A stretch of DNA of 64,000 nt from a virus. The notes under the pieces are model-generated. The model was not told where the DNA came from. It made no database searches and was given only the letters and a program-made list of their open reading frames with translations. Positions 2,167 to 38,792 of this stretch are shown here, one piece after another (the first letter of the stretch is position 1; every line of letters begins with the position of its first letter). The stretch lies in IMG/VR virus record IMGVR_UViG_3300043811_000226; one strand, 5' to 3'. The translations under genes were made by a program, and so were the position numbers.

Positions 2167-2170
2167 GTGG

Positions 2171-2467: not shown

Positions 2468-2880
2468 AACGCTTGCCCGGCCATCAGCTTCGCGCGGTTC
2501 GTGATGGTCTCGTTGCTCGGCAGCGGGCCAACGAACGCGAAGCGGTACACCTTCGATTCGCCGCCGGCGGCTCCCTCGTTGGGGATCGTCAGGATGTCGA
2601 GCCAGCCGTCCTGGTCGCCTTCCCAGCCCAGAAGCGGGCGTACGTTCGGGCCGCCGTAGGTATGGCTGATGTAGACGACCATCGGCCGGCGCGCGTCGTG
2701 GTGCGTCGCAAGGAAGAGCGCCGTGTAAAGTCCCCCCTTGTAGTGCCTCCAGAGACCAGGCTTGAAGTTCGCCACGGCTCTTCCTACTTCGTCCATGTAG
2801 TCCTCCTTCTCGCGCACCTTGCGCTGTTGTTCACACTCGTCTTCACAGCTGCACGGAAACCCGGTCACAGGGCAACGCAT
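2464..2880 (-). CDS. DUF1653-like protein
   Basis: WRHYKGGLY...MVVY...VRP motif. Confidence 0.75.
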   Translation of the reverse strand: MRCPVTGFPCSCEDECEQQRKVREKEDYMDEVGRAVANFKPGLWRHYKGGLYTALFLATHHDARRPMVVYISHTYGGPNVRPLLGWEGDQDGWLDILTIPNEGAAGGESKVYRFAFVGPLPSNETITNRAKLMAGQAL

Positions 2881-3123
2881 CTACTTGCCTCCCTTCTTCT
2901 TATTCCGCGCTAGCGGCACATCTACGAAGCGCGTCTCCTTCTTCACGAGGCGCATCGGCTTGCCGCAGTGCATGAACACGTGGTCCTTGGGCCGGTCCCA
3001 GTAGTCGCCGGCGTGCGCCGAGTTCTGCTCGAAGCACTCGTCGCAGAGCAGCATGATCTGCGAGTTGATGCCCAGTAGGTCGGGCAGGTCCTGCACACGT
3101 ACGCCCTTGTCATTTTCCGCCAC
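2881..3123 (-). CDS. small Zn-binding hypothetical protein
   Basis: CDEC...HCGKPM. Confidence 0.55.
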   Translation of the reverse strand: MAENDKGVRVQDLPDLLGINSQIMLLCDECFEQNSAHAGDYWDRPKDHVFMHCGKPMRLVKKETRFVDVPLARNKKKGGK

Positions 3124-3340
3124 GGACCTCCACCCTTTCTGGTTTCTCTAGTTCCGTGCGTTTCGCTTGCACGCAGTTCGGGCAGCGCCACCCGTGCTCC
3201 TTGCTGAAAGACCAGCCGCTTCTCCTTGCAAGCTTGGCCATGTGCGCCTTATCTCGCGCATTGTCGCGCTGGTCCCATTGCCCGCAGACGCCGCACCAGA
3301 CGGTGTACTGCCTCGAGATGTAGCCCTTGTACTCGCTCAC
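3110..3340 (-). CDS. small Zn-finger hypothetical protein
   Basis: CGVC...GW...CPNC. Confidence 0.6.
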   Translation of the reverse strand: MSEYKGYISRQYTVWCGVCGQWDQRDNARDKAHMAKLARRSGWSFSKEHGWRCPNCVQAKRTELEKPERVEVRGGK

Positions 3341-3822
3341 GCGAGCACCTTGCCCAGGTACTGCACTGCGTCCTGCATCGACTGGAAGATGCGCACAGGC
3401 ACCGTGAGCATCAAGTTGTCGATGAGGCCGAAGTCCTCGACCTCGTGCAAGTCATTCATGTTCAAGGCAGTGAAGCGTTCTTTGTACGTGCTCGTATCCG
3501 AGCAGTAGCCGGCTATGGGCATACCACGCGCGTACCCGTAGCCCATCTCCCACGCTGTGCCGACGTCCATAGAAGGTCCTCGAAAGGCCTCCATGTTCGC
3601 AAGCATGCCGTGACAGCTGTTGATGAACCGAACATTGGCCATGAAGATCTGCGCGGCCATCAGGTGTGGCACCTTGATGTTGTCGAGGACCGCGTCGAGA
3701 GGGAACACGCCCTCCAGGCCGCGAGTAGTACACTCGTCCTTGATGGTCTTCGCGTGCTCCTTCGCGTTCCTGAAGAAGACGTCCGGTCCTGCTAGGTAGA
3801 TGCGCTTCATTGTCTTGTCCAT
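3337..3822 (-). CDS. nucleoside 2-deoxyribosyltransferase family protein
   Basis: IYLAGPDVF, FPLD, D-x-GTAWEMGYGYARGMP motifs; AGGAG RBS before 3822. Confidence 0.9.
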   Translation of the reverse strand: MDKTMKRIYLAGPDVFFRNAKEHAKTIKDECTTRGLEGVFPLDAVLDNIKVPHLMAAQIFMANVRFINSCHGMLANMEAFRGPSMDVGTAWEMGYGYARGMPIAGYCSDTSTYKERFTALNMNDLHEVEDFGLIDNLMLTVPVRIFQSMQDAVQYLGKVLA

Positions 3823-5113: not shown

Positions 5114-5778
5114 TCGTTCTCCGGAGCCTCATACAATTCGAGTGTCTTGAGCTGCATGGGATGGTCCTCTGGCGCGAAGAAGACCTGCACAGCAATCTGC
5201 CCCTCATCCTTCTGGATCACGCGCGCTGGTCCGACGCGCGTCACGATAGCCGGGCGGATGCTGAGCGCACTACGGCCTGTTAGCACCATCACATGGACGA
5301 TGTTGCCGATCCTAGGCTTTCGCGACTTCGCGAAGGTGTAGCTTCCTACCCACGGCTTCTTTGTCACCAGGTCTGCCGGTGGAGCGTCTGCGCGCACGTG
5401 GGCTGCGAAGTCACGGACGTCCTTGATGAAGGCCTTCTCGGACGCGAGGTCGTCCTCGTCGTGGTCGCAGTCGGCCACGATGACCGACATCGCGTCCTCG
5501 AGGCGAGAGGCACACTGCTCAAGGAACAGAGCGATGTCCTCCTTCAGAGGACCGGGCATTTTGTTCTCTGGCTCGTCGCGCTTCAACTCCCTGATGTCGC
5601 CAGCCAAGCAGTGCCCGGCCACAATGTCCCGCCGCTCAACAAGCTGCGCCGCCTTCTCGATCGCGTCGTTCCAAGTGTCGTCCACAAGCTGCGAGAAGAG
5701 TCTGGCAGTCTGTCGTCGAGCTTCCTCATTAGGTATGAACCCGAGCCAGTGCATGTACACTTTTTCTACGTCATTCAT
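5074..5778 (-). CDS. hypothetical multi-domain phage protein
   Basis: Start moved to MNDVEKVY; C-terminal PRIGNIVH...RPAIVT...W-R-W-P segment. Confidence 0.55.
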   Translation of the reverse strand: MNDVEKVYMHWLGFIPNEEARRQTARLFSQLVDDTWNDAIEKAAQLVERRDIVAGHCLAGDIRELKRDEPENKMPGPLKEDIALFLEQCASRLEDAMSVIVADCDHDEDDLASEKAFIKDVRDFAAHVRADAPPADLVTKKPWVGSYTFAKSRKPRIGNIVHVMVLTGRSALSIRPAIVTRVGPARVIQKDEGQIAVQVFFAPEDHPMQLKTLELYEAPENEWKENTWRWPPNE

Positions 5779-6170
5779 GGTGTCAGGTCCTTCAGGTCGT
5801 ACCCGCAGAACGGGCAGTAGTTGATAGTGAGGTAGCTGTTGCCACCGTCTTTGATGGGCATGCCGTAACCAATGCGGCGGTCGAGGTCGTAGCGCGGCAC
5901 GATGAGGATATCCGGGCACTGGCTGCGAGCTGAATACATGTGGTGCCTACAGTCCGGCATCTTGAGCTGCTTCTCCATCTGGTCGCAGCAGTACTTCTTC
6001 GCAGAGCCAACCTCGCGCACTTTGCAAATGCAGGCCGTGAAGCGCCCACCACCGTCTTCCCGGTAGAACGAGTACTCGCCGAGTGGCTCGCCCTTGGTGA
6101 TGCGGAACTCGACTGCTGCCTTCACCCACACGCCGCCTACTTCTACTTCAACGACGACGCCCTTCTTCAT
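5775..6170 (-). CDS. hypothetical Cys-rich protein
   Basis: YCCDQM...INYCPFCG. Confidence 0.6.
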   Translation of the reverse strand: MKKGVVVEVEVGGVWVKAAVEFRITKGEPLGEYSFYREDGGGRFTACICKVREVGSAKKYCCDQMEKQLKMPDCRHHMYSARSQCPDILIVPRYDLDRRIGYGMPIKDGGNSYLTINYCPFCGYDLKDLTP

Positions 6171-6181
6171 GTTGTTCTCCT

Positions 6182-6571
6182 TCAGCCGTACGTCCGGTAG
6201 CCGTGGATGAACATCGGCTTCTCGTCAGCGCGTGCGATCATCGTGTCCGAGAACGTCACGCGCCAGATGCGCTCCACGGGAAGACCTGTCTCGATGTTCC
6301 AGAGGATGGCGATGCTCTGGACAGGCAGGTCGTACGCATGCAGCGCAGCGAGCGCACGAAAGCCCTCGGCATCGCTCCATCCTCTCGGCGGGATGTCTAC
6401 CGTCGGTTCTGCGTAGGAGTGCCCCTTGCCACCCTCACACGACTGGCAGGTGTAGATGCCTGCTGCGTGCAGCACCCTCACCGCGAAGCGAATGCCCTTG
6501 TCGAGCCCCTTGTAGAAGTTCTCCGGCTCCATGATGTCACGCATCACGGTCTTCACCGCTTTGGTCGCCAT
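6182..6571 (-). CDS. conserved hypothetical phage protein
   Basis: LDKGI..AVRVL..AGIYTCQSCEG; GGAGG RBS; preceded by the promoter motif. Confidence 0.65.
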   Translation of the reverse strand: MATKAVKTVMRDIMEPENFYKGLDKGIRFAVRVLHAAGIYTCQSCEGGKGHSYAEPTVDIPPRGWSDAEGFRALAALHAYDLPVQSIAILWNIETGLPVERIWRVTFSDTMIARADEKPMFIHGYRTYG

Positions 6572-6587
6572 GTTGTTCCTCCGTGGT

Positions 6588-6617
6588 TCTTATGCCGCGG
6601 AGGCTACGACTACTTGT
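6588..6617 (-). promoter_or_regulatory. phage bipartite promoter-like motif
   Basis: ACAAG-N-CGCGGCATAAGA on the minus strand. Confidence 0.6.
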
Positions 6618-7137
6618 CTTCGCGCATGGCGTCCAGGCAGCGCTCGACCTCTTTCATCTGCGCGACGTTGCCCTCGAAGATGGCGCGCAGCGCCTGAACG
6701 GGAGGCCCTGCCACATCACCGCCGCGGTCATGCAATTCGCACCCTTTTCGAATGACCGGAGGCTTGTCCCACAAGCGGCAGCCGCACGGCAGGTCGGGTG
6801 GTAGAGGCCGCGGCCCCAAGCCCTCGCGCCCAGGCCCAGAGACCAGCGCCTCAGGGTTCTTCTTGATCTCCTCGAGCTCCTTCTTGGACTGCGTGAGGAG
6901 CTTGTTCTTGCTCACCGTCACGTGAGGCACACCATCGGGGCCGACCGAGACGTTGACTGGCCCTAGCTCCGACATCTCGCTCAGCTTGCGATTGAGCAGA
7001 CGGTTGAATGCCTTCTGCTTGCGTCGCCCGTGACGGTTGCCGTTGGGCTGCGTCTGCGTCGAGAGCTTCGCTTCTTCCTGTGCGTTCGCCGTGGTCTCAG
7101 TGAGGTATGTGAGCGCGCGAACACTACGAGTCTTCAT
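6610..7137 (-). CDS. hypothetical protein
   Basis: ORF track, RBS GGAG. Confidence 0.55.
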   Translation of the reverse strand: MKTRSVRALTYLTETTANAQEEAKLSTQTQPNGNRHGRRKQKAFNRLLNRKLSEMSELGPVNVSVGPDGVPHVTVSKNKLLTQSKKELEEIKKNPEALVSGPGREGLGPRPLPPDLPCGCRLWDKPPVIRKGCELHDRGGDVAGPPVQALRAIFEGNVAQMKEVERCLDAMREDK

Positions 7138-7376
7138 GGGGTCGACTCCTTCACTGCGGGCTTTAGCCAGACCACCCGCGAGGCTTCAGTCTCAGGGATC
7201 ACGTAGTACCCGAAGGAACCGCACTCCCTGCACCAGAAAGCACACCCACCATCGTTGATCGTCCTCACCCCCTCCGTGATGACCATGCTGTAACCCTCGA
7301 TGTGGAGGATGCCCGGCCTGTCCGTAGGCTCTCCTTCAACGCCGCGGTTGTTCTCTTTCTCATGGGCGCATGCCAT
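7134..7376 (-). CDS. small hypothetical protein
   Basis: AGGAG RBS, CREC motif. Confidence 0.55.
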   Translation of the reverse strand: MACAHEKENNRGVEGEPTDRPGILHIEGYSMVITEGVRTINDGGCAFWCRECGSFGYYVIPETEASRVVWLKPAVKESTP

Positions 7377-7385
7377 GTTCTTCTC

Positions 7386-10300
7386 CTACTGCTTGCCCGA
7401 CCCTGTCGAGCCAGTGGTTGTTCCAAAGGTGCTCGGCTCCCCGAAGTCCGTCGGTGGATCGACAGGAGCCCCAGGGATGGCCTCGTTCAAGTCCGAGCCC
7501 GTGAACTCGAAGTCCGGCGAGGCTGCGGACGTGAGGAGCTGGCTGTTCTGCGTCTCCGGCCTGTTGATCTTGCGCACCGGCAGGTCGTTCATCGCCACCG
7601 CGCGCGTGGCCGACTGGAAGGCGCCGGCGTAGCTCGCCTCCTCAGCCGTGAGGTTGAAGAACGTGGAGAACTGCCCTTGCAAGAGCAGGTCGTTCGCGCG
7701 GTCGCTGCCCTTCTGGGCGAAGCTCTGGATGAGGGTATCGACAGCGGGGATGGGTTCCACGGTGTACGTCTGCACGATGCTGTCGAGCGCTTGGCTCGGG
7801 TCCTGGCTCTGCGCAGTAGCCGCTGCCGCCGTCAGGAACACGAAGAGCGACTGCAGCATGTTGTACGCCGCGGCGACCTGCAGCGCCGTCGGGTTCTGGT
7901 TGGCCAGAAGAGGGTTCACGACGCGACTGAAGTTCTCGAAGAAGAGCGGCTGGTTCACGCTGCGCGAGAGCCAGAGCTCGAAGGACGTCTGCACCGCCGT
8001 GAAGTCGTTCTTGATGCCGTGGCGCAGGCGCGCGAAGGGCACGGGCTGCACAGAGAACTGCCAGCTCGCATTGCTCGGGATGCCGAGGCCCGTGTTCTTG
8101 TCGACGCCCACCTGGATGATGTTCAGGCCGGCCACAACGTTCACGAGCTCGAAGGACAGGGTCGGCAGTGCATAGTCGGTCGGGTAGTACTCGAGGATGT
8201 CGCCAGCCTGCAGGCCTCGAGGGAGGCTTGGCAGCTGCATCCAGGGCGTCGAGCCGACCACGGTCGTGGGCCCCGAGAAGAACAAGGTCACGGCGTTGCC
8301 GGCGATGACCAGCGCGCTCGCCGTGGTTGTGTTGAGCGACGACAAGGTTAGGTACATGTCCCCCAGGCTGGCCGTGATGGTCACGGGCTGCAGCGTCGTG
8401 CCCTGCTGCGTCTGGGGCAGGTTCTGAAGGAGGATGGCATCGATGGCCGTGTCCCCCTGGCCGCTCACGAAGTAATCGCCTGCGTTGGGCCCACCCGTGA
8501 TGGTGACCACGCGGTACTTGGTCAGGACAAGCGTGGGGCCGAACTCCGCAGACACACCAGTGCCTGCCACACCCACGAACGTGCCGTTGGCATCAATGCT
8601 GTCGCCCACCGCCAGCGTGTGCCCTGTCGCCGTCACGCCGTTGATGGTCGCGATGGTGTAGCCATTACCTGGGCTTGGCCCGCCTCGCAATGCGATGGTG
8701 TCACCCGTCGAGATGGTCCCACCCATCGTTACCGAAGTCACAACGAAGGTTACTTGCGGTCCCACGAAGGACGTCGTGCCCGTAGCTGCCGCCGTCGAGA
8801 AGGCCACATGCGTCGGTACAGTGGCATCAGTGTGCGCCGTCGCAACGGGGCCGACAGAAGGGACGGTCACAGTCCCCGCTGACACCACCTGCGTCTTGGA
8901 GTTGATGTCGTTGGCCACGACGTCGGGCGTGGTCCTTCGGCAGTTGACCACGGCGCCATTGACGAAACCCAGCGTGCTGCAAGCGTTGGTGCTCGGTGTG
9001 TCGTCACCGAAGACGCTGAGCGAGGTCTCGGGCCCGAGCTGGGTCGAGGGGCTGTCCAAGCGTACTCGCACCTTGCGATGAACGGCGCCGATCTCCACCT
9101 CCGCCCCCGGTTGGACCACCACCGTGCCCGTCACGGTGATGGAAGTAGGGGTCACCGCCGAGATGGGCAGCGGTCCGAGGGCAGCGTTGGCCCCTGACTG
9201 CACGGTCACTGTGTCCTCAGGCGCCACGCCGAGCTGCGTGAGGTCGGTCACCGGGCCACCTGTGACCGTCCACGTTGTGTTGGTGCCCGCAGGGATGTCC
9301 ATCGCCCCGGAGAACTTGAGCGGGGAGTAGTAGGCCTCGGCAACCGCACCTGCCGGAAGAACGGCCTGGATGTCCGCTGCCACCTGGTCTGCCGTACGCG
9401 TACTGTCGCCCCCTGCCGCCGACTCCTGGTTGGTGAAGCCGAGGATGCTGTTGGCCGTGCCTGGAAGAACCGTGACCGTCGTCGTAGAGCTTACGCCGAT
9501 GGTTGTAATGACCACGCGGTTGCCCACAATCGAGGCCGTACCGAACAAGGAGATGGCGGCATTGAGCTGAGCAAGCAGCGCCGTCGAGTCGGCAGGCGCC
9601 GTGAAGGAGCCCGACTCCACCGTGAGCCCATTGAAGAGGAAGCTGAAGGTCTTGCCATTGAGGGTGCCCCCTCCTCCGTACCACCCTGCCGTCGTTGTAT
9701 CGCCCGTGCCTGTCAGTACTGCGTGCGTCGGGGCGCCTGAGAGCGTGAGGGTGGCGACGTAAGTAGTACCCCCCACGTTCACCTTGACCTTGTTGTTGTT
9801 CGGGTAGGAGCCGCCAGGGCCTACTTGATGTGCCCCATCGCCGATGACGAAGGTCGAGTCGTCGCGTGAGCCATCGAGCTCCGCCATGATGGAGGGGTTC
9901 AGAACAAGGTCGAAGGGCGCCGCGCCATCCACAGTCAGATGAAGGGTGTCGCTCACGCCCGCAATGATGGCTGCGCCGCCACCGATGGTCGCTTCGGCTA
10001 GAGCCGGCACCGCCAGATGGTTCACGTCCGAGTAGGCGGTGCCGAGGCCATCGAGCGAGTAGAAGTCGCTCGGCCCGGACACCACACCGAACGTATTGAC
10101 CACCGCCTGCGTCGTCAGAAGGTTCAGTACTACTTGCCGGATGTCCGCGAGCCGCTGCGTGGGCGTCAGGCTGTTCAAGGCTGCCGCGTCTTTGCCGACG
10201 AGAGCTGCGCTGTTTGACAGGATGCTGCCCGCGACCACGCTCGGCAGGTTCATGCTGTTGTAGTCGTCGATGCCAGCAGCCAGCCCTTGTACGGTCGCCA

Positions 10301-18140: not shown

Positions 18141-19164
18141 CTACGCGGAGCGAACGATCATGTCCTCCTTCTTGACGGCGCACTCGAGCATGCGCTGTGT
18201 GTCATCGGGGGACGTGTTGCTGGCCACGCCGACGAAGGCGCCTTCTTCGTCGGTGACGACAACAACGATGCGTCCGCCCTTTGGCATCTGCCAAACAGTG
18301 TCATCAACCACGCCTCGCGCAAAGGAGGCCAGCTCCTTCCGTGTAGCAGGCCTTGGCGGCTTCTTTTTGGGCGGCTCCTCGGAAATAGGTCCTTGCCTGT
18401 AGCTGTTCGGCACTTGATGAAGGACCTGTCCTACGCATCCGATGTCCTTCCAGCTCGTGCCATGCACCGTAGGGGAGGACGTTACGCAGGTGACGAGGAC
18501 GTCGGCACCATCAGGTGTGGTGTACTTGCAGGAGCCTCCGACCTTGGCCTGGCTGTACGAGAACCAGCCATAGAGCTTCTCGCTGGGGTCCTTCTGCTTG
18601 CGTATCACAGTCCCAGCGCTCCCTTGGCAATCTGCTCAGCAGCCATAAAGGCTCGAGCACCCATCAGCACGAAGCGCTCTCGGTCGGCGCTGATAGCAAG
18701 GATGGCCTCGAGGGCCTTCTTCAAGTTCGCCGGTGCCTTGAAGCCCTTGCTGAAGAGAGCTGCCTTGATGTCGCCCGCGAGCTCAGGGTCGGCGTCCTTG
18801 TAGTCCTCAGCCAGCTCCCATAGGGCGCGCTGCGCATGCGGGTCCTTGAAGCTGAGTACGATCTTGCCAGCAGGCAAGTCGGGGTGCTTGTCACTCTTGA
18901 ACTCTCCCTCAATTAGATGATGGCCCATGGTGTCCTCCATGCTTCTTATGCCTTCTGCTCGTCGAGGGTTGCCTGCGCCTCTTCCTCGTCCTCTTCCCCA
19001 CCACGCCGATCACACTCTTCTACGAGTTCGTCGCGTGCACGCTCGAAGGCCAGGTACTCCTTCGAACCCTCCGCGATGTCGTCGGGGAACAGGTTGTCGC
19101 CGTTCTCCCGGAGGTAGTAGGCGAGCTCTCGAAGGAGCTTCTTCTTTGCACGGGCCTTGTTCAT
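18141..19164 (-). other. three hypothetical CDSs (18141-18608, 18605-18928, 18946-19164)
   Basis: RBSs present; 18605-18928 has an F.SDK.P...SFKDP.A..AL motif. Confidence 0.6.
18944..18972 (-). promoter_or_regulatory. phage bipartite promoter-like motif
   Basis: GCAACC-N-AGGCATAAGAAGCATGGAGG. Confidence 0.6.
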
Positions 19165-19175
19165 GTAGTTCCTCT

Positions 19176-19210
19176 GGCTAAAAGAAGAGGCGCGTATTGC
19201 GCACCCCTTC
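19176..19210 (-). terminator. intrinsic terminator with TTTTAGCC tail
   Basis: GAAGGGGTGCGC/GCGCCTCTTC imperfect stem. Confidence 0.6.
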
Positions 19211-19216
19211 CCTACT

Positions 19217-19786
19217 TCACTCCGGTGACCAGGTGGCTGACCAGAGCTGCTTCACCTGTGCTTCTCGCTCGGGAGACACGCTTCCCAAGTTGTACAGCAG
19301 CGCACGCGTATTACGCACCTCTGATGCCAGATGGTCCGCCCACGCTTTCTCCCACTGCGGGTTGTTCTTCTCTTGGAACCGACGCGCAAGAATGTGTCGG
19401 CGCATGGCGATGACCGCATCCTGTCCCAGCAACGTGTTCGTGAGAAGCGCGTTGATCTGGAGGATGCGCAGAAAGAGCTCCAGGATCTCGAGGAAAGGGT
19501 ACTCGCGCAACCTCAGTGCGAGCGCACGCGGGTCTCCCTTCGGAAGAACGTCGAGACTGAGAGGCGGTAGCGTGGACTGGCTCTTCGCGACTTGCGCGAG
19601 AGCCTGCACGACGTGCATGCGGTGCGGCTGGCACAGCCCGGAGCAGAGGGTCGTGAAGATCTTCTGATCCGAGCAGAGCGCGAGAGTAGCAGCGCAGTCT
19701 GCAGCGTCTTCCGTGTTCTTCGCGCGGCAGATGACGCATGCCTTGTTGTCTTCGGTGACGGTCGTCGGTACTTGGTGGGTGTTCAT
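19217..19786 (-). CDS. hypothetical protein with N-terminal Cys cluster
   Basis: GGAGG RBS; promoter motif at 19803-19831. Confidence 0.6.
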   Translation of the reverse strand: MNTHQVPTTVTEDNKACVICRAKNTEDAADCAATLALCSDQKIFTTLCSGLCQPHRMHVVQALAQVAKSQSTLPPLSLDVLPKGDPRALALRLREYPFLEILELFLRILQINALLTNTLLGQDAVIAMRRHILARRFQEKNNPQWEKAWADHLASEVRNTRALLYNLGSVSPEREAQVKQLWSATWSPE

Positions 19787-19802
19787 GAGGGGCCTCCAGT
19801 AC

Positions 19803-19831
19803 TCTTGTTCCCGAATCGTACCTTCTTTTGC
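19803..19831 (-). promoter_or_regulatory. phage bipartite promoter-like motif
   Basis: GCAAAAG-N11-CGGGAACAAGA. Confidence 0.6.
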
Positions 19832-19872
19832 CTAAAAAGAAGGCCCCCGCCGCCATAGCGGAGAGGGCCTTC
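19830..19872 (-). terminator. intrinsic terminator closing the RAMP/array locus
   Basis: GAAGGCCC...GGGCCTTC stem followed by TTTTTAGGC on the minus strand. Confidence 0.7.
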
Positions 19873-19874
19873 AA

Positions 19875-20449
19875 GGCAGGGCGGGACTCGAACTGGCACG
19901 TCACGCGCTACGGGTCGACGTGGCATGTCTAGCGGGCGGGCTTGTGCAGGCGCGGCTTGTCACCTCGCGTAGTAAGGGGTGGGGTGGGCTTGTCACCTAG
20001 ACGCGGTATGAGAAGATTGGGCTCGTCGCGAGGAAGGACGCGGTCGGACGGGACTTCGGCATGGTTCGTCGCCAGGGATGTTCCGACTGGGGTTGGCTTG
20101 TCACACGGCTGGCCTGGGCATGGTTTGTCATGTCGGGATGGTGGAGTACGACACGTCGCACGTGATGGAGCGACTTGGCGCAAGATGGCTCGTCACCTGG
20201 GCAGGTCCTATGAGACTAGGCATGTCGCTGGGGACGACTGGACTTGGCTCGTCGAGGGGGGGGGGGGTGTGTGGCTAGTCTTGGCACGTCACGAGGCATT
20301 GTTCGGGACGGAATGTCTCCTGGCCTGGAAGATCACGGTGTGGTCAGGGATGTCATTCTGGTGCGACTCGGAGTGGAGAGGCTTGTCTCGTGGAAGGGAT
20401 CGGGTTGGGCAGAGAAAGCTCGTCGCCGAGGCTAGTACTGGTGCGTCGC
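19875..20449. repeat. pentamer-register repeat array, downstream of the RAMP gene; candidate guide-RNA array
   Basis: 18 GTCRY-type anchors from 19900 to 20445; all 17 spacings equal 2 or 3 mod 5; filled with G[G/A]N-NN pentamers. Confidence 0.88.
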
Positions 20450-21223
20450 TCAGTTCTCGGCGGAGGCTTCGGAGGGCGCCTTCTTCTTACCGCCCTTCTC
20501 CTTCTTCTCCCCATTCGAGGCTTCGTCCTTGTCCTCATCCTTGGTCGTGACCTTCACCTTCTGCACCACGGTGAAGTCGGCGACGTCGAACTTGCCCATG
20601 CCCTGACTGCGGTCGGCGCCGATGCCGTCCTCCTGACCGAACGTGAGCATCTCGACGATGTCCTTCTCGCCGAGGTAGCGTGAGTCGCTCGGGTGGGTCT
20701 TGAGCACCCAGATCTCGAAGGTGAGCTCGACGCCCTCGCAGTAGTCGACCTTCTTCAGGGCCGTGCGCGGGCCCAGCGGCGTCTGCACGTGGATGGGACC
20801 TTCCTCGTTGCCGTCGGGCTCCTTGCGGTCGAGATAGTGGCGCTGGCCGCCATCCATGGCCTTGATCTCGAAGCCGTGCTGGAGCAGGTCTTTCGACCCG
20901 CGCTTGTTCTTGGTGAAGCGCAACATGGTCGCGCACTCCTTGAAGAGCGCCTTGATCTGCCGCGATTCGATGAACAGGCCCTTCTCCGGGTCGGCCTTGA
21001 ACGTGTTCCAGCTCTTCTCGGTGACCTTGTCGGTCAGGTCCTTGAGCGCTTCCTGGGTCTGGACCTCGGTCTGCTTGTCGTCGAAGCCGGTGCCGGCCTT
21101 GATCCAGTCCTTGATGAGGTCCGGGTTCTTCGGGAAGCCGCCGCAGATCTTCTCGCGGAAGCGGACGGTCACCTTGTAGATGTCGTAGAGAGCGCGGGAC
21201 GAGAAGTCGTGGGTCGTGGTCAT
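20450..21223 (-). CDS. solitary Cas7/Csm3-like RAMP-superfamily protein
   Basis: N-terminal strand YKVTVRFREKICGG, IESRQIKALFKECA (IPGSSLKG-like), C-terminal G-rich loop GIGADRSQGMGKFDV; AGGAG RBS. Confidence 0.8.
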   Translation of the reverse strand: MTTTHDFSSRALYDIYKVTVRFREKICGGFPKNPDLIKDWIKAGTGFDDKQTEVQTQEALKDLTDKVTEKSWNTFKADPEKGLFIESRQIKALFKECATMLRFTKNKRGSKDLLQHGFEIKAMDGGQRHYLDRKEPDGNEEGPIHVQTPLGPRTALKKVDYCEGVELTFEIWVLKTHPSDSRYLGEKDIVEMLTFGQEDGIGADRSQGMGKFDVADFTVVQKVKVTTKDEDKDEASNGEKKEKGGKKKAPSEASAEN

Positions 21224-21258
21224 GAGGTTGTTCTCCTAGGTGGGGGAAAAAGGAAGAA

Positions 21259-22037
21259 GGATAGGCAGGTATCGGCGTGGCCTGTCGCACGGAAGGGGTG
21301 CGGTTGGGCATGTCACGCAGGTGAGGCGAGCATCGGCGTAGATAGTCGCGAGGGCTTGTCCAAAGTCGACTTGTGTTGTCACAAGGGATTGGTGCAGATG
21401 GTCACGAGGCTTGGACGGACGCGGATAGTCGTGATGGCCCGTGACGGGTTGCTTCGGCATGTCGCAACGGTGTGACTAGTACTGGTCCGCGGCAGGTGTG
21501 GTCAGTCGCGGCGGCTTGAGTCGGCACGGCATGTCGCGCGGTTGGGTAAGGTGTGGTTAGTCGCCGAGACGAGGAAGGTCCTGGGTTGCGATGGGTAGTC
21601 GCCGTGGTTTGTTACGAGACGAATCGGCATGTCACCAAGGCAAAGGTTGGCGCGGCATGTCGCATCGGCGGGATATGGGAAGGCACGTCGCAACGGATAG
21701 AACAGGTTCGTCGCATGTCGAGGTGCGGTCCAGTTTGCCGCTACGGCAGGGGCGAAGTTAGAAACGGATCGTCGCGAAGACGTAGCTCAGGAAGGCAGGT
21801 CACCTAGACGAGAAAGGGATGACCAGTCGCGAAGGGGAGGACTGAAGAGACGAGGCATGTCGCGTGGTCCAGCATGCGTCGGATCGGCCCGTCGTGCAGG
21901 CGTGAATGGACTAGGTATGTCGCGAGGTCGGGATAGGGCTGGCTTGTCGCGCAGACTCGAGTGGGAATGGACTGTCGCCTGGTTCGGTAGGAAGTGGACT
22001 GTCACTACGGGACGGGTAGGGTTGGCTTGATTGTCCC
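21259..22037. repeat. pentamer-register repeat array, upstream of the RAMP gene; candidate guide-RNA array
   Basis: 25 anchors from 21284 to 22001; 22 of 24 spacings equal 2 or 3 mod 5; e.g. GGTTG GGTAA GGTGT GGTTA GTCGC at 21540-21564. Confidence 0.9.
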
Positions 22038-23277
22038 GTCAGTGAGATCGACGAACCCGACGAAGTAATACCTCCATCCCATGCCGTGCTCGGTGTCCTT
22101 GGGGTACTTCTCCGGCGGCTCCGTGAATGTGCAGCCCTCACCCACCTTCAAGAACTGCAGGTGGCCAAGGCTCGCGCTGTCCATGGCGATGTTCTGGAAT
22201 GCGGCCCATGTACCACCGCGCTCGCGCATCTGCTCGAGCGCTTCTTCTGCAGGCGTAGCGTCTCCCAGAAGAGGGTGCGGCTTGATCACGGAGAGGCCCT
22301 CAAGGCCGTGAGCAGCCGGTCGTACTTTAGGTACACCGACTCAATGCTCTCATCGGAGTTACGTAGACCTGCGTAGAAGCGAACACCTACGTCATCGATA
22401 ACGACCTGATCGATCTCTGTGCGCTCCACGTCTCCAAGGGCTTCTTCGAGCACCGAGTCACGCGACGAGTCAAGAAAGAGAAGTACCTCCTCCTGCTCGA
22501 ACGTCGCCAGCTCCGACGTGTTGAGCACATCTTCTAGATCAGCGTTCTCGTAGTAGCAACAGGCGGTGTCGTCGGCGAAGAACATGTCCCAGAGCCCGTC
22601 GTCCTTGCTCCGAACCATCTGAAAGAGCTCTTGACGTACAAGCAGCTTCTGGATGTTCTCCTTGCTGAGATCGACGACCGCGACTCCGTGCCATCCAAGA
22701 GTGGCGCCGTCCGTAGCACTCACTTCCAGAATGAACTTCATCAGAGTCTCCCTTCTGCGCGTATGCGCTGAACTTCCTTCGCGACGGCGATGAAACCCTT
22801 GGCGAGAAATGACTGTGTCCTACGCAGCTCACCCCACGAGGCAAGCCGTATGCGTATGCCGGTACCGCGCCTGTAGACCTCCCACAACTTCTTTGCGAGG
22901 CGTTCTACGCGTGCTTCCTCGAGCTTCTTGTTTGTCTTTTTGGCGGTCCTGTTCAACGGCATGATGAGCTCCTACAGGCGCCCCTCAGCGCGCAGCTTCT
23001 TCATGATGTCGGCGATGTCGAGGCACGAGTCGAGCCTGGAGAGCTCCCCGCGCTGAAAGAGCAGCTCGGTCACCTCGGCGGCGCTCGCGCCTTGCCCAGG
23101 GCCGTTGGTCTTGGACGCATCGCGCCACGCACGCAGGACCTTCTCCTCATAGGTCTCCCCGGGCCGGGTGGGAGTGAGGGTTGCCGCGGTCTTCTTTTTC
23201 ACGACCTGCGGGATGTAGTCGCGAGCACGCATAGAGCGAGGCGAGATGTCTTCGGATGGAACAGTACGAACGCGCAT
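22005..23277 (-). other. four hypothetical CDSs (22005-22289, 22286-22741, 22741-22962, 22972-23277)
   Basis: Coupled ORFs; the last two both end in RAEGRL. Confidence 0.6.
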
Positions 23278-23300
23278 GGTGGGTTGGGTCTCCTCAAAGT

Positions 23301-23329
23301 TCTTTTACCGTGCAGCATGCCAGAGTTGC
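23301..23329 (-). promoter_or_regulatory. phage bipartite promoter-like motif
   Basis: GCAACTC-N-CGGTAAAAGA followed by GAGGAG. Confidence 0.5.
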
Positions 23330-23380
23330 AGAGGCTAGTGAACAACGTACAGGGCCGAAGCCCCGACGCTGCTCAAGGTA

Positions 23381-23965
23381 CTACGTGGCCCTCTTCCCAT
23401 TCAGATGTTGTCCCGCCGTAGGTGGCTGGTACGCGCGCAACCTTCTGATGAGCGCCAGCTCTTGAAGGTCCAGCTCTAGAGACGAGGGCAGCCCTGCAAG
23501 TGCGGGTGCGTGTTCGATGATGGACTTCTTCCGCGACTTCATCCGCGGAGTGATCGACAGCTGCTCGAGCTGTCCATCCGCAATAAGAGCCTTGTACTGC
23601 GCATCTTTCTCCAACAGCTCGCGCACACGCTTGATGGTGCTTTCCGCCGCCGGTTTTCCCTCTCTGAGATGTCGCAACGTACAACGCGCAACGCCAAGCT
23701 GCTTGGCGACCATGCCCCAGCTTACCTCTTTAGTCTTCAACGAAGCGATTTGCTGCGCAAGGCTACTAGTACCGTTAGCGCGTACTTTGGTCGCCGCTTT
23801 TTGTGTAGAGGAGAAGTACTTGTTCGCGGCCAAGTACGCCGACTCTTTTTCCGCCGCAGTGAGCTCCATCTTACTAATGGCCCGCCGTGCACCGGCATTG
23901 CCACTGTACACGCCGGCCTTCAGTCGGCTCTTGAAATCATCCAGCGTCAACCTTGTGTGATTCAT
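23381..23965 (-). CDS. HTH-containing DNA-binding protein (Cro/C1-like)
   Basis: SWGMVAKQLGVARCTLRHLREGK. Confidence 0.6.
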   Translation of the reverse strand: MNHTRLTLDDFKSRLKAGVYSGNAGARRAISKMELTAAEKESAYLAANKYFSSTQKAATKVRANGTSSLAQQIASLKTKEVSWGMVAKQLGVARCTLRHLREGKPAAESTIKRVRELLEKDAQYKALIADGQLEQLSITPRMKSRKKSIIEHAPALAGLPSSLELDLQELALIRRLRAYQPPTAGQHLNGKRAT

Positions 23966-24469: not shown

Positions 24470-25900
24470 CTACTGCAGCACCACCAAGTACTTCGAGCAG
24501 CGCGTGATGGCCGTGTAGATCCAGCGCTTCCAGTCGTCGTACGAGATGCGGTTCGGCTTCTCGGCCACCACCACAACGTGCTCGAATTGGCTGCCTTGGG
24601 CTTTGTGGCAGGTCAAGGCATAGCCGTAATCAAGCAGCAGCCCCACCTGGCTCCAGTTGTTCGGCCGATGTCCAGTGGCCGCGTGGTACTCATTGAAGTC
24701 CTTGAAGGTGGTCGGGTGGCCGAACTGCGGCGCGCTGATGCTGCCCGACACTTCAATCTCGTCATCCTCGAAGAGAACGCGCCCTTCGTAGACGTACCGA
24801 GCGCTTTCCTCGATCTCCTGGATGGTGCCGCGCATCCCGTTGAAGATAGTGGCGTCGGTATTGCGGAGACAGATGACCTGGTCGTCGACTTGTGGAGGAT
24901 CAGCCCATGACGACTCCCAGCGCGTAACACGCGCTCGGTTGTTCAAGTCAACGCGAGTCTCATTCTTGTAGCAAAGCATCGCCACGTCGTCGTAGCGCAC
25001 GCCCGGCGCCGTGAAGAGCTTCTGCGCAACCTCGTTGACCTGGTTGTGCTCGAGCACCTGCACCTCTTCGCAGTCGGCCATCCTCGGTACCTGTCCCGTA
25101 CGCCGCACGAACTCGCTGAGCGCGAGGATGGGGCTGTCCTCAGCTTGCCTGTGGATGGTCTCGAGCTTCAGGTGCGGCTTGTCCATCAGGCTGAAGCTGC
25201 CGAAGACCGGTGGCAGCTGCCCGTGATCGCCGACCGCGAGTATGGGGATGCCGTAGCTCTGGAGGTCGGTGAAGAGCTCCTCGTTGAGCATCGAGGCCTC
25301 GTCGACGACGATGAGGTCGTAGGGCAGCCTCTGGCGCTTCTTCCATCCGCGAATGCCTCCCGTCTTCTCGTTCGGGATGGGGTAGTAGATAAGGCTGTGC
25401 AGGGTGCCGATGTCGAAGGCGCCCTTGACGATATTTGCCTCGTAGAATTTCTTTCTTAGTACCGACGTCGCCTTGCCGGTGAAGGCGCAGAAGGCGGCCT
25501 GCACATCGAGGTACTTGTTGGCGAACACCGAGAGCAGCGTGCTCTTACCCGTACCTGCGTAGCCGCCGACCTTGAGCAGGTCGCTCTCCTTTCGCTCATA
25601 CCATTTGCTCATGGTGTCGAAGACCTCCCGTTGCTCCTTCGAGAGGCTGTTCTCGGTGAGCTTGCCGCCCATCTTGCGCTCGACCTCGTTGAGCAGCTCA
25701 TGCGGCTTCTTGTCCGTCTTGGGGACGAACTTGAACCGGTAGTCGCTGGTGGGCTTGTCCTCCTTTGGAGGCGTCTCAAAATCAGGCGTGGGAGCCCCAG
25801 TGTACGGGTTTGTATACTTGCTCTTGGTAACGCTGGCAGCGTGCTGCCTGAACGAGCCAACCGCATTGAAGTTCGACTTGTCGTTCTTACCGAAACTCAT
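24470..25900 (-). CDS. SF1B helicase (Dda/RecD2-like)
   Basis: GYAGTGKST, DEASM, GDHGQLPPV, YALTCHKAQGSQF, YTAITR. Confidence 0.93.
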   Translation of the reverse strand: MSFGKNDKSNFNAVGSFRQHAASVTKSKYTNPYTGAPTPDFETPPKEDKPTSDYRFKFVPKTDKKPHELLNEVERKMGGKLTENSLSKEQREVFDTMSKWYERKESDLLKVGGYAGTGKSTLLSVFANKYLDVQAAFCAFTGKATSVLRKKFYEANIVKGAFDIGTLHSLIYYPIPNEKTGGIRGWKKRQRLPYDLIVVDEASMLNEELFTDLQSYGIPILAVGDHGQLPPVFGSFSLMDKPHLKLETIHRQAEDSPILALSEFVRRTGQVPRMADCEEVQVLEHNQVNEVAQKLFTAPGVRYDDVAMLCYKNETRVDLNNRARVTRWESSWADPPQVDDQVICLRNTDATIFNGMRGTIQEIEESARYVYEGRVLFEDDEIEVSGSISAPQFGHPTTFKDFNEYHAATGHRPNNWSQVGLLLDYGYALTCHKAQGSQFEHVVVVAEKPNRISYDDWKRWIYTAITRCSKYLVVLQ

Positions 25901-26297: not shown

Positions 26298-29035
26298 TCT
26301 TCGCAGGCGTGTGGGTTGGGAGACGGGTTACCGACTTTGCGCTCGTACTCGCACGCCAGGCACACCTCCGGCGCAACGAAGAGTTTCTTCAACGCCTCGT
26401 TGGTCTTGATGCGCACCTCTTCTCGAGCGGGAGTTGAATCCTCCGAGTAGAAGCTGATGTGAAACGAGTCCGGCGTGCACCAGAACTTGCCCCCGAACCC
26501 TAAGCGGCCCATGAAGCGAAACTCTGTCGTCTCGTACGGGTTCTCGCTCCAGGCTACATGCCGTTGTACAAAGTACTCTCGGTTACTCTCAGGCGCGCCT
26601 GCGTTTGCTACCAGCGCGCTGTAAACTTTGTCGAACAGCTCATGAGTCCTTGGTCGCTGAAGCGGCATGTGATCCTACTTCTCCTTGATGACGATCTTGC
26701 TCCACACGATGAGCACGTGGTCGGGGCTAGGGGGTTCGTCTTCTTTGTACTCGCCGAGCCACCACTCGGGACCGAGCATCCTGGCCTCGGTCTCGTCGAC
26801 CTTGTTCTCGAAGCGCAGACCGCCACAGTTGACGTTCCGCTTCCAGCGCTTGCCGACGGTCTTGCCTGTTGGAATCGACGTCGAGTACTCGCCAAGAGAG
26901 TCGAACTCCGCTTGCGTCAGTTCCACCAACCGTGGCGATGATGACATAGGTCTCTCCTGTTGCCGCCGTGAAAGACGCACCGACGAGGTTCATTCCATCG
27001 AACATCTTCTCGTAGATCTGCAGCGTGACACTGGCATCCTCCGGCGCGTAAAGCTGCAGCTGGTGCTGACCGTAGTTCTGTGCGAACTGCAAGAGCTTGC
27101 CTTGCTGGCGCACTTTGAACTCCACGGATGTGAAGCTGCCGATGGTCCCGTCCCAAAACCCGCTCGGGATGGAGACGGACGGGTCGATCATCTTGCGTTC
27201 GGTCTCCCGAACGAGATTCGCAAACTTATCCTCCGGCGTCAGATGAACGATGGAGCGTTCAACCATCTCCGGCGTCAGAGCGGTCATTCTTCTTGATCTG
27301 GGCAAGTTCTTCCTCCTGCTCCTTCGCCTTTCGCTTCTCGTACTCCTCGATCATGTTCTTGTAGCGTCTTAGGGTGAGGGTGCTACCGAAGCCCATCATC
27401 CTGAGCTGCGTTTCTCGGAGCAGCTTGTTCTTCTCCTTGAGGAGAGGAAGCGCGTTCTGGATGCCCTGACGACCGAGCATGTTGATAGTGTTGAGCAGGT
27501 GCCGGTCGTCCATCAACTCAATGCGCGTGATGCGGCCGTTCTTGCTGCGCCAGTAGTGCGGGTCCTTGAGTTTCGGCTTCGTCTCCTCGTCGTAGTGCTG
27601 AAGAAGCTCGGCAAGTTCGGCGCCATCGTTGTAGTAATCGCTCATCTCTCCCATTGTTTACTCCCCGTAGAGCACCTTGCGGATGGAGTCGATGCGCGAA
27701 AAGAGCTGCTCCATGATGACCATGGTACTTCCTCCCTCATGGTTGTGGGGGGAGAGCCAGTCGTAGAGCTCTTCCAGCGACCGGCAGAGAAACTCGAGGT
27801 CGCTGCGGTACGGTGGGAAGTGCGCCGGCGCGTAGAGGTTCAGACGCTTCTGCAACTCCGCCCAGGACTCCGGCGTGATCTGCCCTGCCTGACTCTCCTG
27901 CATGACCTGCCACGCGCTATTGGCCACCATGGCTGCGATGCGGTAGCTGCGGAGCAGCGTGACAATCTTCTCGGCGCTCTTCTGCGTACCAACCTGCATA
28001 ATGAAGGCGCCCATCTGGGCTTCGTCGAGCTTCTCGAGGTCCCGGATCTCGCCTTCCTTCATCCACGTCGTTCGGCTCATGGAGTCTCCTTGGATGCCTG
28101 ATACAAATCCCAGCAAGGTGTGTGGTACACCGCACCAATCTTGCTCCAGCACGAGTAGCTGCCTGGCAAGATCATGGTGCGACACAGCTGGCACTTGACC
28201 GGCTGCGATAGAAGAACCCTTCTCGGGACCTCTTTGGTTGTGGACTGCGCCGTGCGCCTCGCGCGGACCTCGGCAGCTACTTGCTCCTCACGCGCGCGCC
28301 TTGTGGCGGCAGCAAGCATGTCGTTGATAGAAGAGAGGTCCGAGAAGATGTCTGAGAAGTCTACCGATGGCGGAGGAGGCTTGGGTGAGTTCATGTCGAG
28401 CAGCTTGTGCTCGACAATGAGCTTGCAGGCGATGACGGCCATCGAACGCTGCTCCTCCCCTTCGGGCAGTCCGTTGACCATCGCGAGCAGTCGTCGGACC
28501 CGCTCTCTGTAGTCGGGCACGGCTACTGAAGCTGCGCGCGCGCGGCGACCTTCAACATCTCGGAGACGGCCTTCAGGATTTCTGGCAGGCTGCATTCGCT
28601 GTCTGCGTCATGCGTCCTGGCGTGTGCCTCCGCCTCGCGAGCGAACTCCTCTGCCGCAGTGGTCAGCTCGTCGGCGTTGAAGCCGTGCAAGAGGCCAGGC
28701 ATCTTCTTCTGCACTGCTTCCAGAAATGGCTTGGCCTCCCAGCTGTCACCCGAAGCATCCATGATCCGGTTGAACAGTGCCTTCGTTCGAGGGTTGAACT
28801 TGAGCGCCGCGGGATGAGCACCCTGAGGGCGTAGATGTCCTGGTAGCGCAGACAATGGGTTCTCTTCTCGGAGAACCCCGAAGAGGATCGATCCATCGTC
28901 CTGGTCATGCAGCTGGAAGGTGTAGCCGTCCGCATCCAGCTTGTTCGCCGCCGTCTCGATGGCCGCGGCATACGTCGGCATCTTCTTGTTGTACTGCACA
29001 CCGACGACGCGAAACTTCTTCTTCTCTGAGGTCAC
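26294..29035 (-). other. run of hypothetical CDSs (26294-26668, 26675-26947, about 26727-27287, 27259-27654, 27658-28080, 28077-28595, 28523-29035)
   Basis: RBSs and ORF packing; some starts uncertain. Confidence 0.5.
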
Positions 29036-29063
29036 TGGCTCCTCCTTGGGGGACAGAGCGCGC

Positions 29064-37346: not shown

Positions 37347-38153
37347 CTACTCCTCGTCCTCTTCAAGCCCCATGTGCTTACGAAGCGTGTCGCCCATGGT
37401 CGTCTTCATGCGCGCGATCTGGGAAGGGCTCTTGCCCATCTTCTTCGCGAGGTCGTTGGTCTTGGTGATCTTGGTGTGCCCGTTGGTACCGAAGACATGG
37501 TTGAAAAGCAGGTGCATGTCGGGCTTGTTCGGGAATATCTCGGGCAGGATGTTCTGCGCGACAGCGATCTGCTGGTCTTCGAAGCCGCGGCCCGTGCCGT
37601 CGCCGGCGCCGTAATCCATCCCTTCCTCCCCGCCAGAGCGGCCCATCGGGATGTCCCGCCGGACCGCAGAGAGGATGGTGTCGATGCGCTTGGGCTTGAG
37701 GCCCGTGTGCTGCGCGAGCTCCTCGGTTGTGGGTGCACGTCCAAGGTCTTCGGTCAATGCGTCGCGCGCCTTCTGCAGCTTGCCGATCTGACCTGAGACG
37801 CCCTCAGGAATATAAAGTAGATTTTGAAAACGGTTGTTGTAGCGCATCGCCTTACGCATGTAGTTGTCAGCATGCGTATTGAGAGCTGCGCCTTTACTCG
37901 GGTCGTAGGTCTCAAAGGCCTTGATGAGGTGTGTCTGCAGCTCCGCCTTGAAAGAACTCTCCGGGACAGTCGGCGCCTTGTACTGCCTGACTTTCTGTGA
38001 GATCACGGGCTCATAAAGCTTGAGGAGTGGCTGCAAGTCTTTCGGTTTCCTACCGCCAGACTTCCACTTGTTCAGCAAGGTTATCTCGTCAGCCTTTCGT
38101 TTCGTTTGTGCCGCTTCCTTGGATTGCATGTAGTCATCAAGAGGCCCTGGCAT
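37347..38153 (-). CDS. sigma-70-family RNA polymerase sigma factor (FliA/WhiG-like)
   Basis: Region 2 AFETYDPSKGAALNTHA..YMR; region 3 LGRAPTTEELA..TG; region 4 HTH NDLAKKMGKSPSQIAR. Confidence 0.85.
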   Translation of the reverse strand: MPGPLDDYMQSKEAAQTKRKADEITLLNKWKSGGRKPKDLQPLLKLYEPVISQKVRQYKAPTVPESSFKAELQTHLIKAFETYDPSKGAALNTHADNYMRKAMRYNNRFQNLLYIPEGVSGQIGKLQKARDALTEDLGRAPTTEELAQHTGLKPKRIDTILSAVRRDIPMGRSGGEEGMDYGAGDGTGRGFEDQQIAVAQNILPEIFPNKPDMHLLFNHVFGTNGHTKITKTNDLAKKMGKSPSQIARMKTTMGDTLRKHMGLEEDEE

Positions 38154-38792
38154 CTTGTTCTCTCCTTCGACCATCTGCCATGGAGACAGCTTCTTCTGCG
38201 GACCATCCGTACTTCACGATGCGCGTCCATGTACGCAAGTAGGGCGCACCAGTAAGCTCAATCAGCTCGCCGATGGACATCTTGCGCCCGTTGTAGACGA
38301 CGAAGCGTGTACTGCGCCTGTTCCTAGACTGCTCCTTAGAAGTCGCCCACACGCAGTGTACCCAAGTTCGTTCTTCTTCCTCTCGATGGAGTAACCAGGA
38401 CCTGGCCGGCGGCCCATATCAGCTAGGAAGTTCTCGAATTTGTGCCAGCGGTGGCAGACAGTGATCCCGCGACCACCGTAGTCCTTGTAGGCCCTGACGT
38501 TCTTGTTGTAGCAACGACGCAGCATACCTGCCCAAATGCCGTACTCAAGACTCTGGTGACCCCTAGGAGCATCACCGTGTGTACGAGAGAGGTCTCCGAC
38601 AGTAAGCCGGCTACTCAAGCAACCGCACGATGTGGTGTGCCCAGACTTCAGATGTCCTGAAGGAACAATGCAGGTGTTGCCGCACAGGCACCAGCACTGC
38701 CACAAGGCACTGCCGCAAGAACTTGTGCCTGTACGTTCTTCCACCTTCAGCCTTCCGAAGGTCTGCAAGGTGAGATCTTCAAACGCTCCCAT
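38137..38792 (-). pseudogene. frameshifted HNH homing endonuclease
   Basis: Paralogue of 30363-31031 split into two frames at about 38355, where GY-xxxN-CVWA has lost its Asn segment. Confidence 0.8.

Follow-up and report, generated by a model that had tools for sequence, protein, structure and literature searches.

The 64,000-nt stretch of viral DNA analyzed here, IMG/VR record IMGVR_UViG_3300043811_000226 (the window), holds at positions 19830-22037 a lone gene for a small RAMP protein that is flanked on both sides by long non-coding arrays with a 5-nt period. By its sequence, this is a VIPR-family locus of an uncultivated soil phage. VIPR systems were described in two preprints (bioRxiv 10.64898/2026.04.26.720920 and.720927), and what is said of them here follows the parts of the preprint text that were available. 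According to that text, Vipr is a minimal RAMP protein that occupies its vrRNA with one protomer per repeat, and in the VIPR code GGY is buried, NN is read against double-stranded DNA (dsDNA) and one base is skipped. The targets are rival phages and satellites. As VIPR already figures in these 2026 preprints, the locus is not categorically new. It comprises:

20450-21223, minus strand: vipr-like gene, 257 aa, encoding a single-RRM RAMP core, thumb, G-loop and disordered tail
21224-21258, minus strand: spacer of 35 nt that separates the vipr start codon from the upstream array; on the gene strand it contains a T-rich run and the ribosome-binding site AGGAGA
19875-20449, no strand assigned: downstream array of 19 units (hidden Markov model, HMM, parse), each reading linker, G-R-N-N-N pentamers, GGCWY and GTCRC on the plus strand
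21259-22040, no strand assigned: upstream array of 26 units (HMM parse), with the same architecture as the downstream array
19835-19872, minus strand: intrinsic terminator just past the downstream array, a GC-rich hairpin followed by CCTTCTTTTT

Layout and grammar of the arrays

An earlier note on this DNA, made from its letters, had described a lone RAMP gene between two arrays in about 1.35 kb of non-coding DNA, and this layout stands: the arrays sum to ~1.36 kb, with the gene at 20450-21223 between them. Specifically, the autocorrelation at lag 5 reaches 0.37-0.38 in both gene flanks, compared with ~0.25 at other lags, whereas the vipr-like gene itself has a lag-3 periodicity. A sliding scan of the whole window raised strong flags at the two array stretches only. 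Coding repeats were considered as an explanation and rejected, since the period is 5 and not 3 and the homologous open reading frames (ORFs) are shadow frames only.

The HMM parse resolves the ~43 repeats of the earlier count into 45 units (19 and 26), each of which runs from a 2-3-nt linker through 2-8 pentamers of the form G-R-N-N-N to GGCWY and finally to a GTCRC anchor. The pentamers total 201, in runs that are broken every 2-8 pentamers by GTCRC plus 2-3 nt. For VIPR membership, long intergenic flanks are expected to carry at least 4 such tandem units, of GGY/NN or of a related consensus. Exact GTCRY anchors occur 38 times in the two flanks. Relative to the GTC anchors, G recurs at -5, -10 and so on to -25, and again at +8, +13 and onwards, which indicates that GTCRC is a pentamer in register with the plus-strand sequence before it and is followed by a fixed shift. 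Within the inner pentamers, 94% have G at position 1 (1.63 bits), and position 2 is G in 61% or A in 24% (0.53 bits). Positions 3-5 carry only 0.03-0.08 bits, so that three positions per inner pentamer are free, and not two. The grammar first proposed, G(G/A)N-NN followed by GTCRY and a 2-3-nt linker, is thus right in its register, anchor and linker and has to be amended in the number of free positions. The variable positions had also been expected to be less conserved than the GG positions; the information content across units and the substitutions among close relatives (see below) both indicate that they are less conserved than the first G and the anchor.

The final pentamer ahead of each anchor reads GG(C/T)WY (G 91%, G 93%, Y 77%), and strict GGY is confined to this last pentamer of each unit. 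A single unit specifies ~6-20 nt, with 8-15 bases in a typical unit. The G-rich strand of the arrays (plus) is antisense to the vipr-like gene (minus), and the last anchor of the downstream array, GTCGC, abuts the vipr stop codon, which gives TGA-GCGAC on the gene strand. An Rfam scan of the window returned chance-level matches only and no structured 3' tail was found, and folding of the upstream array RNA gave no signal on either strand (z -1.41 and -0.29). A run of 12 G at 20252-20263, inside the downstream array, disrupts the unit pattern and may be slippage-prone.

A Vipr homologue with a Cas7-like fold

The AlphaFold2 model of the 257-aa protein, built on a 50-sequence alignment, has an RRM core (pLDDT 83.6), a long beta-hairpin thumb at residues ~138-162 and a G-loop, GIGADRSQGMGKF, at residues 200-212, with the invariant pattern G200-x-G202-A-D-R205-S-Q-G208-x-G210-K-F. 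The C-terminal tail (residues 222-257) is disordered and rich in Lys and Glu. The RAMP/Cas7 fold that the first reading had proposed is borne out by structural comparison: the best Foldseek matches are Cmr4, Csm3 and type VII Cas7 (E 2e-7), and VIA-align superposes the model on Csm3 with Z 12.9 (root-mean-square deviation 3.8 A, 168 residues aligned, spanning residues 11-225), where a structural Z of at least 6 to a CRISPR RAMP marks VIPR membership for the fold. The BFVD matches are viral RAMP proteins. Pfam held no family that the protein matched, a PDB search by sequence found no relative, and NCBIfam yielded only G-loop matches to Csm4 and Cas6, at 15-17 bits against cut-offs of 55-59.

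The relationship to Vipr rests on profile comparison. With hhalign, nothing was found between the family and the single Vipr sequence of Escherichia phage SUSP1, and the link required profiles on both sides: A3, a broad family profile with members down to 25% identity, aligned with A2, the profile of the SUSP1-Vipr clade, at Prob 94.7% and E 6e-8 over 135 columns, which take in helix 1, the thumb region and the G-loop. Because of this match the 257-aa protein is regarded as a Vipr homologue, and the resemblance to VIPR (a Cas7-like protein plus GGY/NN RNAs) that the earlier note had pointed out is upheld. Furthermore, a homotrimer was predicted with a head-to-tail interface and an ipSAE of 0.53, as against 0.00 for the best control, with at least 61% of contacts in agreement between runs and a partner pLDDT of at least 74. 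Among solved pairs the mark for such predictions is attained by 20 of 30, and among single chains by 1 of 23; passing it points to a likeness to Cas7 filaments that may stem from the model's memory of solved Cas7 filaments.

This likeness raises the question whether the locus could be a degenerate or minimal CRISPR-Cas remnant, in which a Cas7 gene sits beside a decayed CRISPR array. The best structural matches (Csm3, Cmr4, Cas7) and the sub-threshold G-loop matches to the Csm4 and Cas6 HMMs are compatible with such an origin, and the protein shares with type III and type VII Cas7 not only the fold but also the predicted head-to-tail oligomer and the logic of a backbone filament that advances in fixed steps on a guide RNA. 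However, the scores lie far below all curated Cas cut-offs, and the step is 5 nt here and 6 nt in Cas7. As the earlier note had stated, neither CRISPR nor cas components accompany the gene: no CRISPR-like direct repeats or repeat-spacer array were found in the 64-kb window, and no cas gene, Cas5, Cas6 and Cas10 included, among the ~35 of its ORFs that were scanned (not every ORF). The published VIPR target also differs, being dsDNA recognized via gapped pairing. Finally, the array architecture is conserved across thousands of relatives and is therefore not decaying, and we regard a CRISPR-Cas remnant as extremely improbable.

Conserved architecture and rapidly changing units

A family profile search gathered 2,613 representatives at 50% clustering (E at most 1e-3), and 116 related loci, for the most part viral, were fetched, 34 of which lie on IMG/VR viral contigs. 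In nearly all of the 116, period-5 arrays with GTC-based anchors adjoin the gene, in agreement with the 5-nt periodicity that had been anticipated for the flanks of homologues. GTCGC is the commonest anchor, and GTCGG, GTCGT, GTCGA and GTCAC are lineage-specific. Anchor spacings in the family loci peak at 23, 28, 33, 38 and 43 nt, and 575 of the 1183 spacings leave a remainder of 3 when divided by 5. No neighbour gene was shared among 114 loci, and no ORF beside vipr was common to other loci; as no neighbouring gene is conserved, the clade is taken to be one without vap.

Close relatives differ mainly in what the arrays contain. In one pair of loci (L001 and L037) the flanks are 99% identical and the array interiors differ, a second pair (L006 and L009) is distinguished by an indel of ~200 nt within the array, and in a third (L059 and L060) the genes are 90% identical and the arrays unalignable. 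Where the arrays of close relatives can be aligned, substitutions amount to 3.5% at positions 3-5 versus 1.4% at the first G and the anchor. The arrays thus turn over much faster than the gene, and the association of protein and array is conserved family-wide.

The family reaches a cultured virus, the Microcystis phage Mae-JY09 (PP395641.1, 37713-38870; locus L119), which encodes a 29%-identical homologue. The gene spans 37713-38459, and its stop codon forms the same TGA-GCGAC junction, followed by a C-rich array of ~400 nt that starts at 38460 and ends at a strong palindromic hairpin. A literature search found no mention of Mae-JY09, which offers a laboratory handle on the clade.

Other members have unusual arrangements. 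In the metagenomic phage contig L096, a single block of co-directional genes contains two distinct VIPR systems, at 1-1470 and 1980-3750. One is canonical: its GGC/NN arrays (1-220 and 1345-1460) lie on the gene strand, and its SUSP1-like Vipr is encoded at 255-853. The other belongs to the clade studied here and has arrays that are C-rich on the gene strand. L034 (3430-3800; 5176-5500) stands alone among the loci found in that its upstream array has the G-rich side on the strand of vipr. Its two arrays are mutually inverted, and the downstream one begins where a convergent gene (5509-7602, minus strand) has its stop codon. In L059 (2690-2720) and L060 (2485-2510) the downstream array stays in pentamer register up to the next ATG, which has no Shine-Dalgarno sequence and lies within an anchor-like ATGAC; as a speculation, anchor processing there could free a leaderless mRNA.

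Comparison with published systems

Type II, known from SUSP1 and a P. fulva prophage, is so far, in the available preprint text, the only VIPR type with a worked-out RNA architecture and code. Its vrRNAs of ~100 nt consist of 9-16 YNNGG repeats and then a structured 3' tail (10.64898/2026.04.26.720920,.720927). In SUSP1 (NC_028808), vipr lies at 28474-29061 on the minus strand, and GGTNN repeats on the gene's strand are each followed by a tail of hairpin and T-run. The locus described here shares with type II a lone single-RRM RAMP with thumb and G-loop (GxG..R..G[KR]F), long non-coding flanks on both sides with a 5-nt register, a G-rich conserved core and variable bases, and a phage setting in which cas genes and a CRISPR array were not found.

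The departures from type II, as far as the available text describes it, concern orientation, unit size, GGCWY-GTCRC punctuation, a relaxed core and the lack of a tail or vap gene. Specifically, type II has an accessory vap gene, which makes a two-gene operon, 9-16 repeats per unit and a G-G-Y core, whereas the present clade has no conserved vap gene, 2-8 pentamers per unit and a G-R-N core. Each RNA in SUSP1 has its own structured 3' tail, promoter and terminator, and here GGCWY-GTCRC plus 2-3 nt separates head-to-tail units instead. In both SUSP1 and the canonical L096 system, the G-rich strand is the gene strand, in contrast to the antisense orientation here.

The preprints distinguish seven VIPR types and six vap genes, from which it follows that a vap-less type presumably exists. 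They also report stand-alone vipr genes, "staggered" head-to-tail vrRNA arrays and NNNGG, YNNNG or NNNNG repeats, and their Vipr set was gathered by PSI-BLAST from X1U2U4 (10.64898/2026.04.26.720920,.720927). With these other types the clade has in common a gene that stands alone, contiguous spacer-less arrays and a relaxed, NNNGG-like consensus. The available preprint text has no mention of a GTC anchor, a 2-3-nt frame shift, units of 2-8 repeats or an antisense orientation, although the published types may still cover the clade.

A further point of comparison comes from the Evo-PIN language model, with which Vipr-like clusters with non-GGY period-5 cores such as GAC/NN were reported (bioRxiv 10.64898/2026.10.21.760802). 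These arrays likewise have period 5 and lie beside Vipr-like folds, and the GTC anchor of the present arrays reads GAC on the gene strand. They consist, however, of ~10 uniform repeats, whereas GAC/GTC occurs here once per unit as punctuation between variable pentamers, and strands are named in that study without reference to the RNA.

Proposed mechanism and the strand of the array RNA

The analysis is compatible with a model in which the locus is a VIPR-family system for RNA-guided DNA recognition and the G-rich plus strand is the putative guide, a proposal to which we give about an even chance. This choice of strand rests on polarity, since only the G-rich strand matches the published G-G-Y/NN order. 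By homology to the SUSP1 system, Vipr protomers would assemble head to tail on the array RNA, one to each pentamer, in a filament that would bury the constrained G(R) and display the variable bases; the displayed bases would then read the dsDNA of a rival element and bring about its silencing. From the anatomy of the arrays, GGCWY-GTCRC and the fixed 2-3-nt shift may mark the end of a unit, either as a processing site or as a stop or nucleation site of the filament. As each unit end is marked in this way, long precursors could give rise to ~45 mini-guides of 2-8 pentamers each.

This model requires antisense transcription, and the transcription signals that were found bear on it directly. The terminator behind the downstream array is strong and lies on the gene strand (19864-19835), with a stem of 8 pairs at 19864-19844 ahead of the T run and a hairpin that can be extended to GAAGGCCC/GGGCCTTC. 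Right behind it lies a promoter-like GGCAAAAG at 19825-19832, and a promoter-like GGTAAAAG at 23302-23309 lies upstream of the vipr unit, both on the minus strand. The two are one-mismatch copies of GGYATAAG that bracket the vipr unit, and this motif, with at most 1 mismatch, has 53 copies in the window versus 36 +/- 5 in shuffles. No sigma-70 promoter was found in 18500-23500, and the family-wide scan had matches in 3 of 70 flanks on the G strand and in 3 of 74 on the C strand, where the background rate is 0.04 per flank. Two sigma-70 matches in one related locus (L046) were not upheld by this count.

Several observations weigh against a G-rich guide. Both arrays sit between the gene-strand promoter-like motif at 23302-23309 and the gene-strand terminator that directly follows the downstream array, and the GGYATAAG motif was not found on the plus strand at the plus-strand 5' end of either array; the only plus-strand match near the arrays is a 1-mismatch copy at 20005-20012, inside the downstream array. 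The upstream array ends 35 nt ahead of the vipr start codon, a spacer too short to hold separate divergent promoters. Of the 46 loci with a downstream array, 30, Mae-JY09 included, have a first anchor that overlaps the vipr stop codon or directly adjoins it. The array in L059 and L060 takes up all the space between the vipr stop codon and the ATG of the next gene, which leaves no room for an antisense promoter. The G-rich strand is, furthermore, antisense to vipr in ~77 of 78 family arrays, as co-transcription would predict. In L096, the canonical GGC/NN arrays are embedded equally tightly in the operon but are sense to the genes, so that there tight embedding goes with the transcribed strand.

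These same observations favour the alternative that the C-rich RNA of the gene strand, co-transcribed with vipr, is the guide, within the same family and by the same general mechanism. The transcript would be cut into mini-guides, as on this strand a unit reads 5'-GYGAC-RWGCC-(NNNYC)n-NN(N)-3': a conserved tag of 10 nt stands at the 5' end, and after it come 2-7 pentamers with a fixed 3' pyrimidine-C and three free bases. The terminator comes right after the downstream array, with the next promoter-like motif directly behind it, the co-directional genes around the L059 and L060 arrays leave no spacer, and the orientation is constant in ~99% of arrays. The non-GGY cores of other Vipr-like clusters, such as GAC/NN (bioRxiv 10.64898/2026.10.21.760802), likewise suit a guide of this kind.

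Conversely, it is the opposite strand that gives the published G-G-Y/NN order, exactly so in the terminal pentamer, and for a C-rich guide the odds of meeting this exact GGY by chance would be roughly 1 in 10-30. The published mode of Vipr recognition employs syn guanines (10.64898/2026.04.26.720920,.720927). The inverted upstream array of L034 does not follow the constant orientation, and each of the two inverted arrays there has its G-rich side on the same strand as the co-directional gene next to it, which was counted in favour of a G-rich guide. For pyrimidines, the syn conformation is rare, which also speaks against a guide rich in C. Moreover, a transcript of the gene strand may exist and yet not be bound by Vipr. 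A C-rich guide is, on balance, quite possible, if short of an even chance.

RNA-library contigs from two soil studies start at 21256 and 21261, at the array edge, and end at 21406 and 21498, and part of the gene is also covered. These contigs are unstranded, and their occurrence in RNA libraries is no proof of transcription; the two starts at the array edge, 21256-21261, are a weak hint in favour of the G-rich strand. Strain variants distinguish the soil samples. An RNA-library contig has C>A at 21138, towards the 5' end of vipr, and T>G at 21299, within the first units of the array, and a DNA run from soil has insertions of 1-2 nt at 21167-21168, again towards the 5' end of vipr. The uncovered interval 21169-21255 between two X12 contigs is uninterpretable, since the strain indels at 21167-21168 in DNA runs may break contigs. 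An identical protein is also encoded on a 194.5-kb contig, and there is a further homologue of 91% identity.

Further approaches left the balance where it was. A terminator scan across loci gave calls too few to decide the strand, and apparent G-strand terminators at gene-proximal array ends were discarded because their positions fall inside the vipr ORF. No hammerhead or other Rfam family was found in the arrays of 73 related loci, so that ribozymes gave no strand information. All transcription signals found, like the gene itself, run opposite to the G-rich strand, which leaves either strand a candidate for the RNA. Across the readings, the chance that the G-rich strand is the guide is put at about one half, the gene strand is given a little over a third, and a function other than that of a guide is assigned a small remainder.

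Search for targets

The prediction of a target is independent of the choice of strand. Nine reading models, with 2, 3 or 4 bases read per pentamer and 0-3 bases skipped, were run on 1.4 Mb, comprising the window outside the arrays and all loci on both strands. None of them gave more matches than the shuffled-order controls, so that the guide function stays putative. A scan of IMG/VR with an 18-mer of concatenated triplets matched one contig, with no flanking support and at chance level (by a rough estimate, 1-2 random matches), and a scan of IMG/VR under a 4-of-5 model gave no match. The short units imply either small target genomes, or several units that act jointly, or three bases read per pentamer.

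These results also bear on whether the arrays are programmable guides at all. They might instead be cis-regulatory elements or decoys, for instance autoregulating Vipr-binding untranslated regions (UTRs), sponges for rival vrRNAs or sites that act at the DNA level. Such roles would fit the absence of a target under any skip rule in the 1.4 Mb of local sequence, the shortness of single units, the embedding of the arrays in the UTRs of the vipr transcription unit and the form of the C-rich transcript, which is complementary to that of canonical GGY/NN RNAs. Yet unit content is hypervariable among near-identical phages while frame and anchors are kept, which is the signature of a guide repertoire, and a decoy would not need 45 different units. 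The protein is also homologous to one that was shown experimentally to use such repeats as guides. We therefore consider a non-guide function improbable.

Implications for RNA-guided recognition

Proposals for VIPR see in it the ancestor of CRISPR RAMP effectors and a new programmable DNA-binding tool. The present locus adds a large clade, with its 2,613 representatives, in which dozens of short, punctuated units stand against the gene on the strand opposite to the one that the published code predicts. Which strand is used, how are the units delimited, and how many bases are read per pentamer? Answers to these questions would widen the design space of RNA-guided systems. Specifically, three free positions would fit the published geometry of 3 bp per protomer without a skipped base, and the clade might supply compact multiplex guide arrays. 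Should the antisense G-rich vrRNAs prove true, the clade would be one more VIPR subtype. If the C-rich RNA is the guide, the clade would instead reveal a second RNA code for Vipr proteins, with a 5' handle, a short guide and three readable bases per protomer, intermediate between published VIPR RNAs and the crRNAs (guide RNAs) of CRISPR.

Genomic surroundings

The ORFs of the window are nearly all unknowns on the minus strand, with some PHROG matches. Next to the upstream array, a possibly coding 94-aa ORF with a GTG start (22005-22289, minus strand) overlaps the end of the preceding gene and enters the array by 36 nt; it has no family match. A Dda-like or RecD-like helicase is encoded at 24470-25900 on the minus strand (PHROG 325, E 1e-82) and matches PADLOC helicase models of candidate defence systems. 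The window's sole direct-repeat families are imperfect tandem repeats with a period of 27-54 nt at 58210-58432 and 52832-52949, inside large ORFs that possibly encode collagen-like or fibre proteins.

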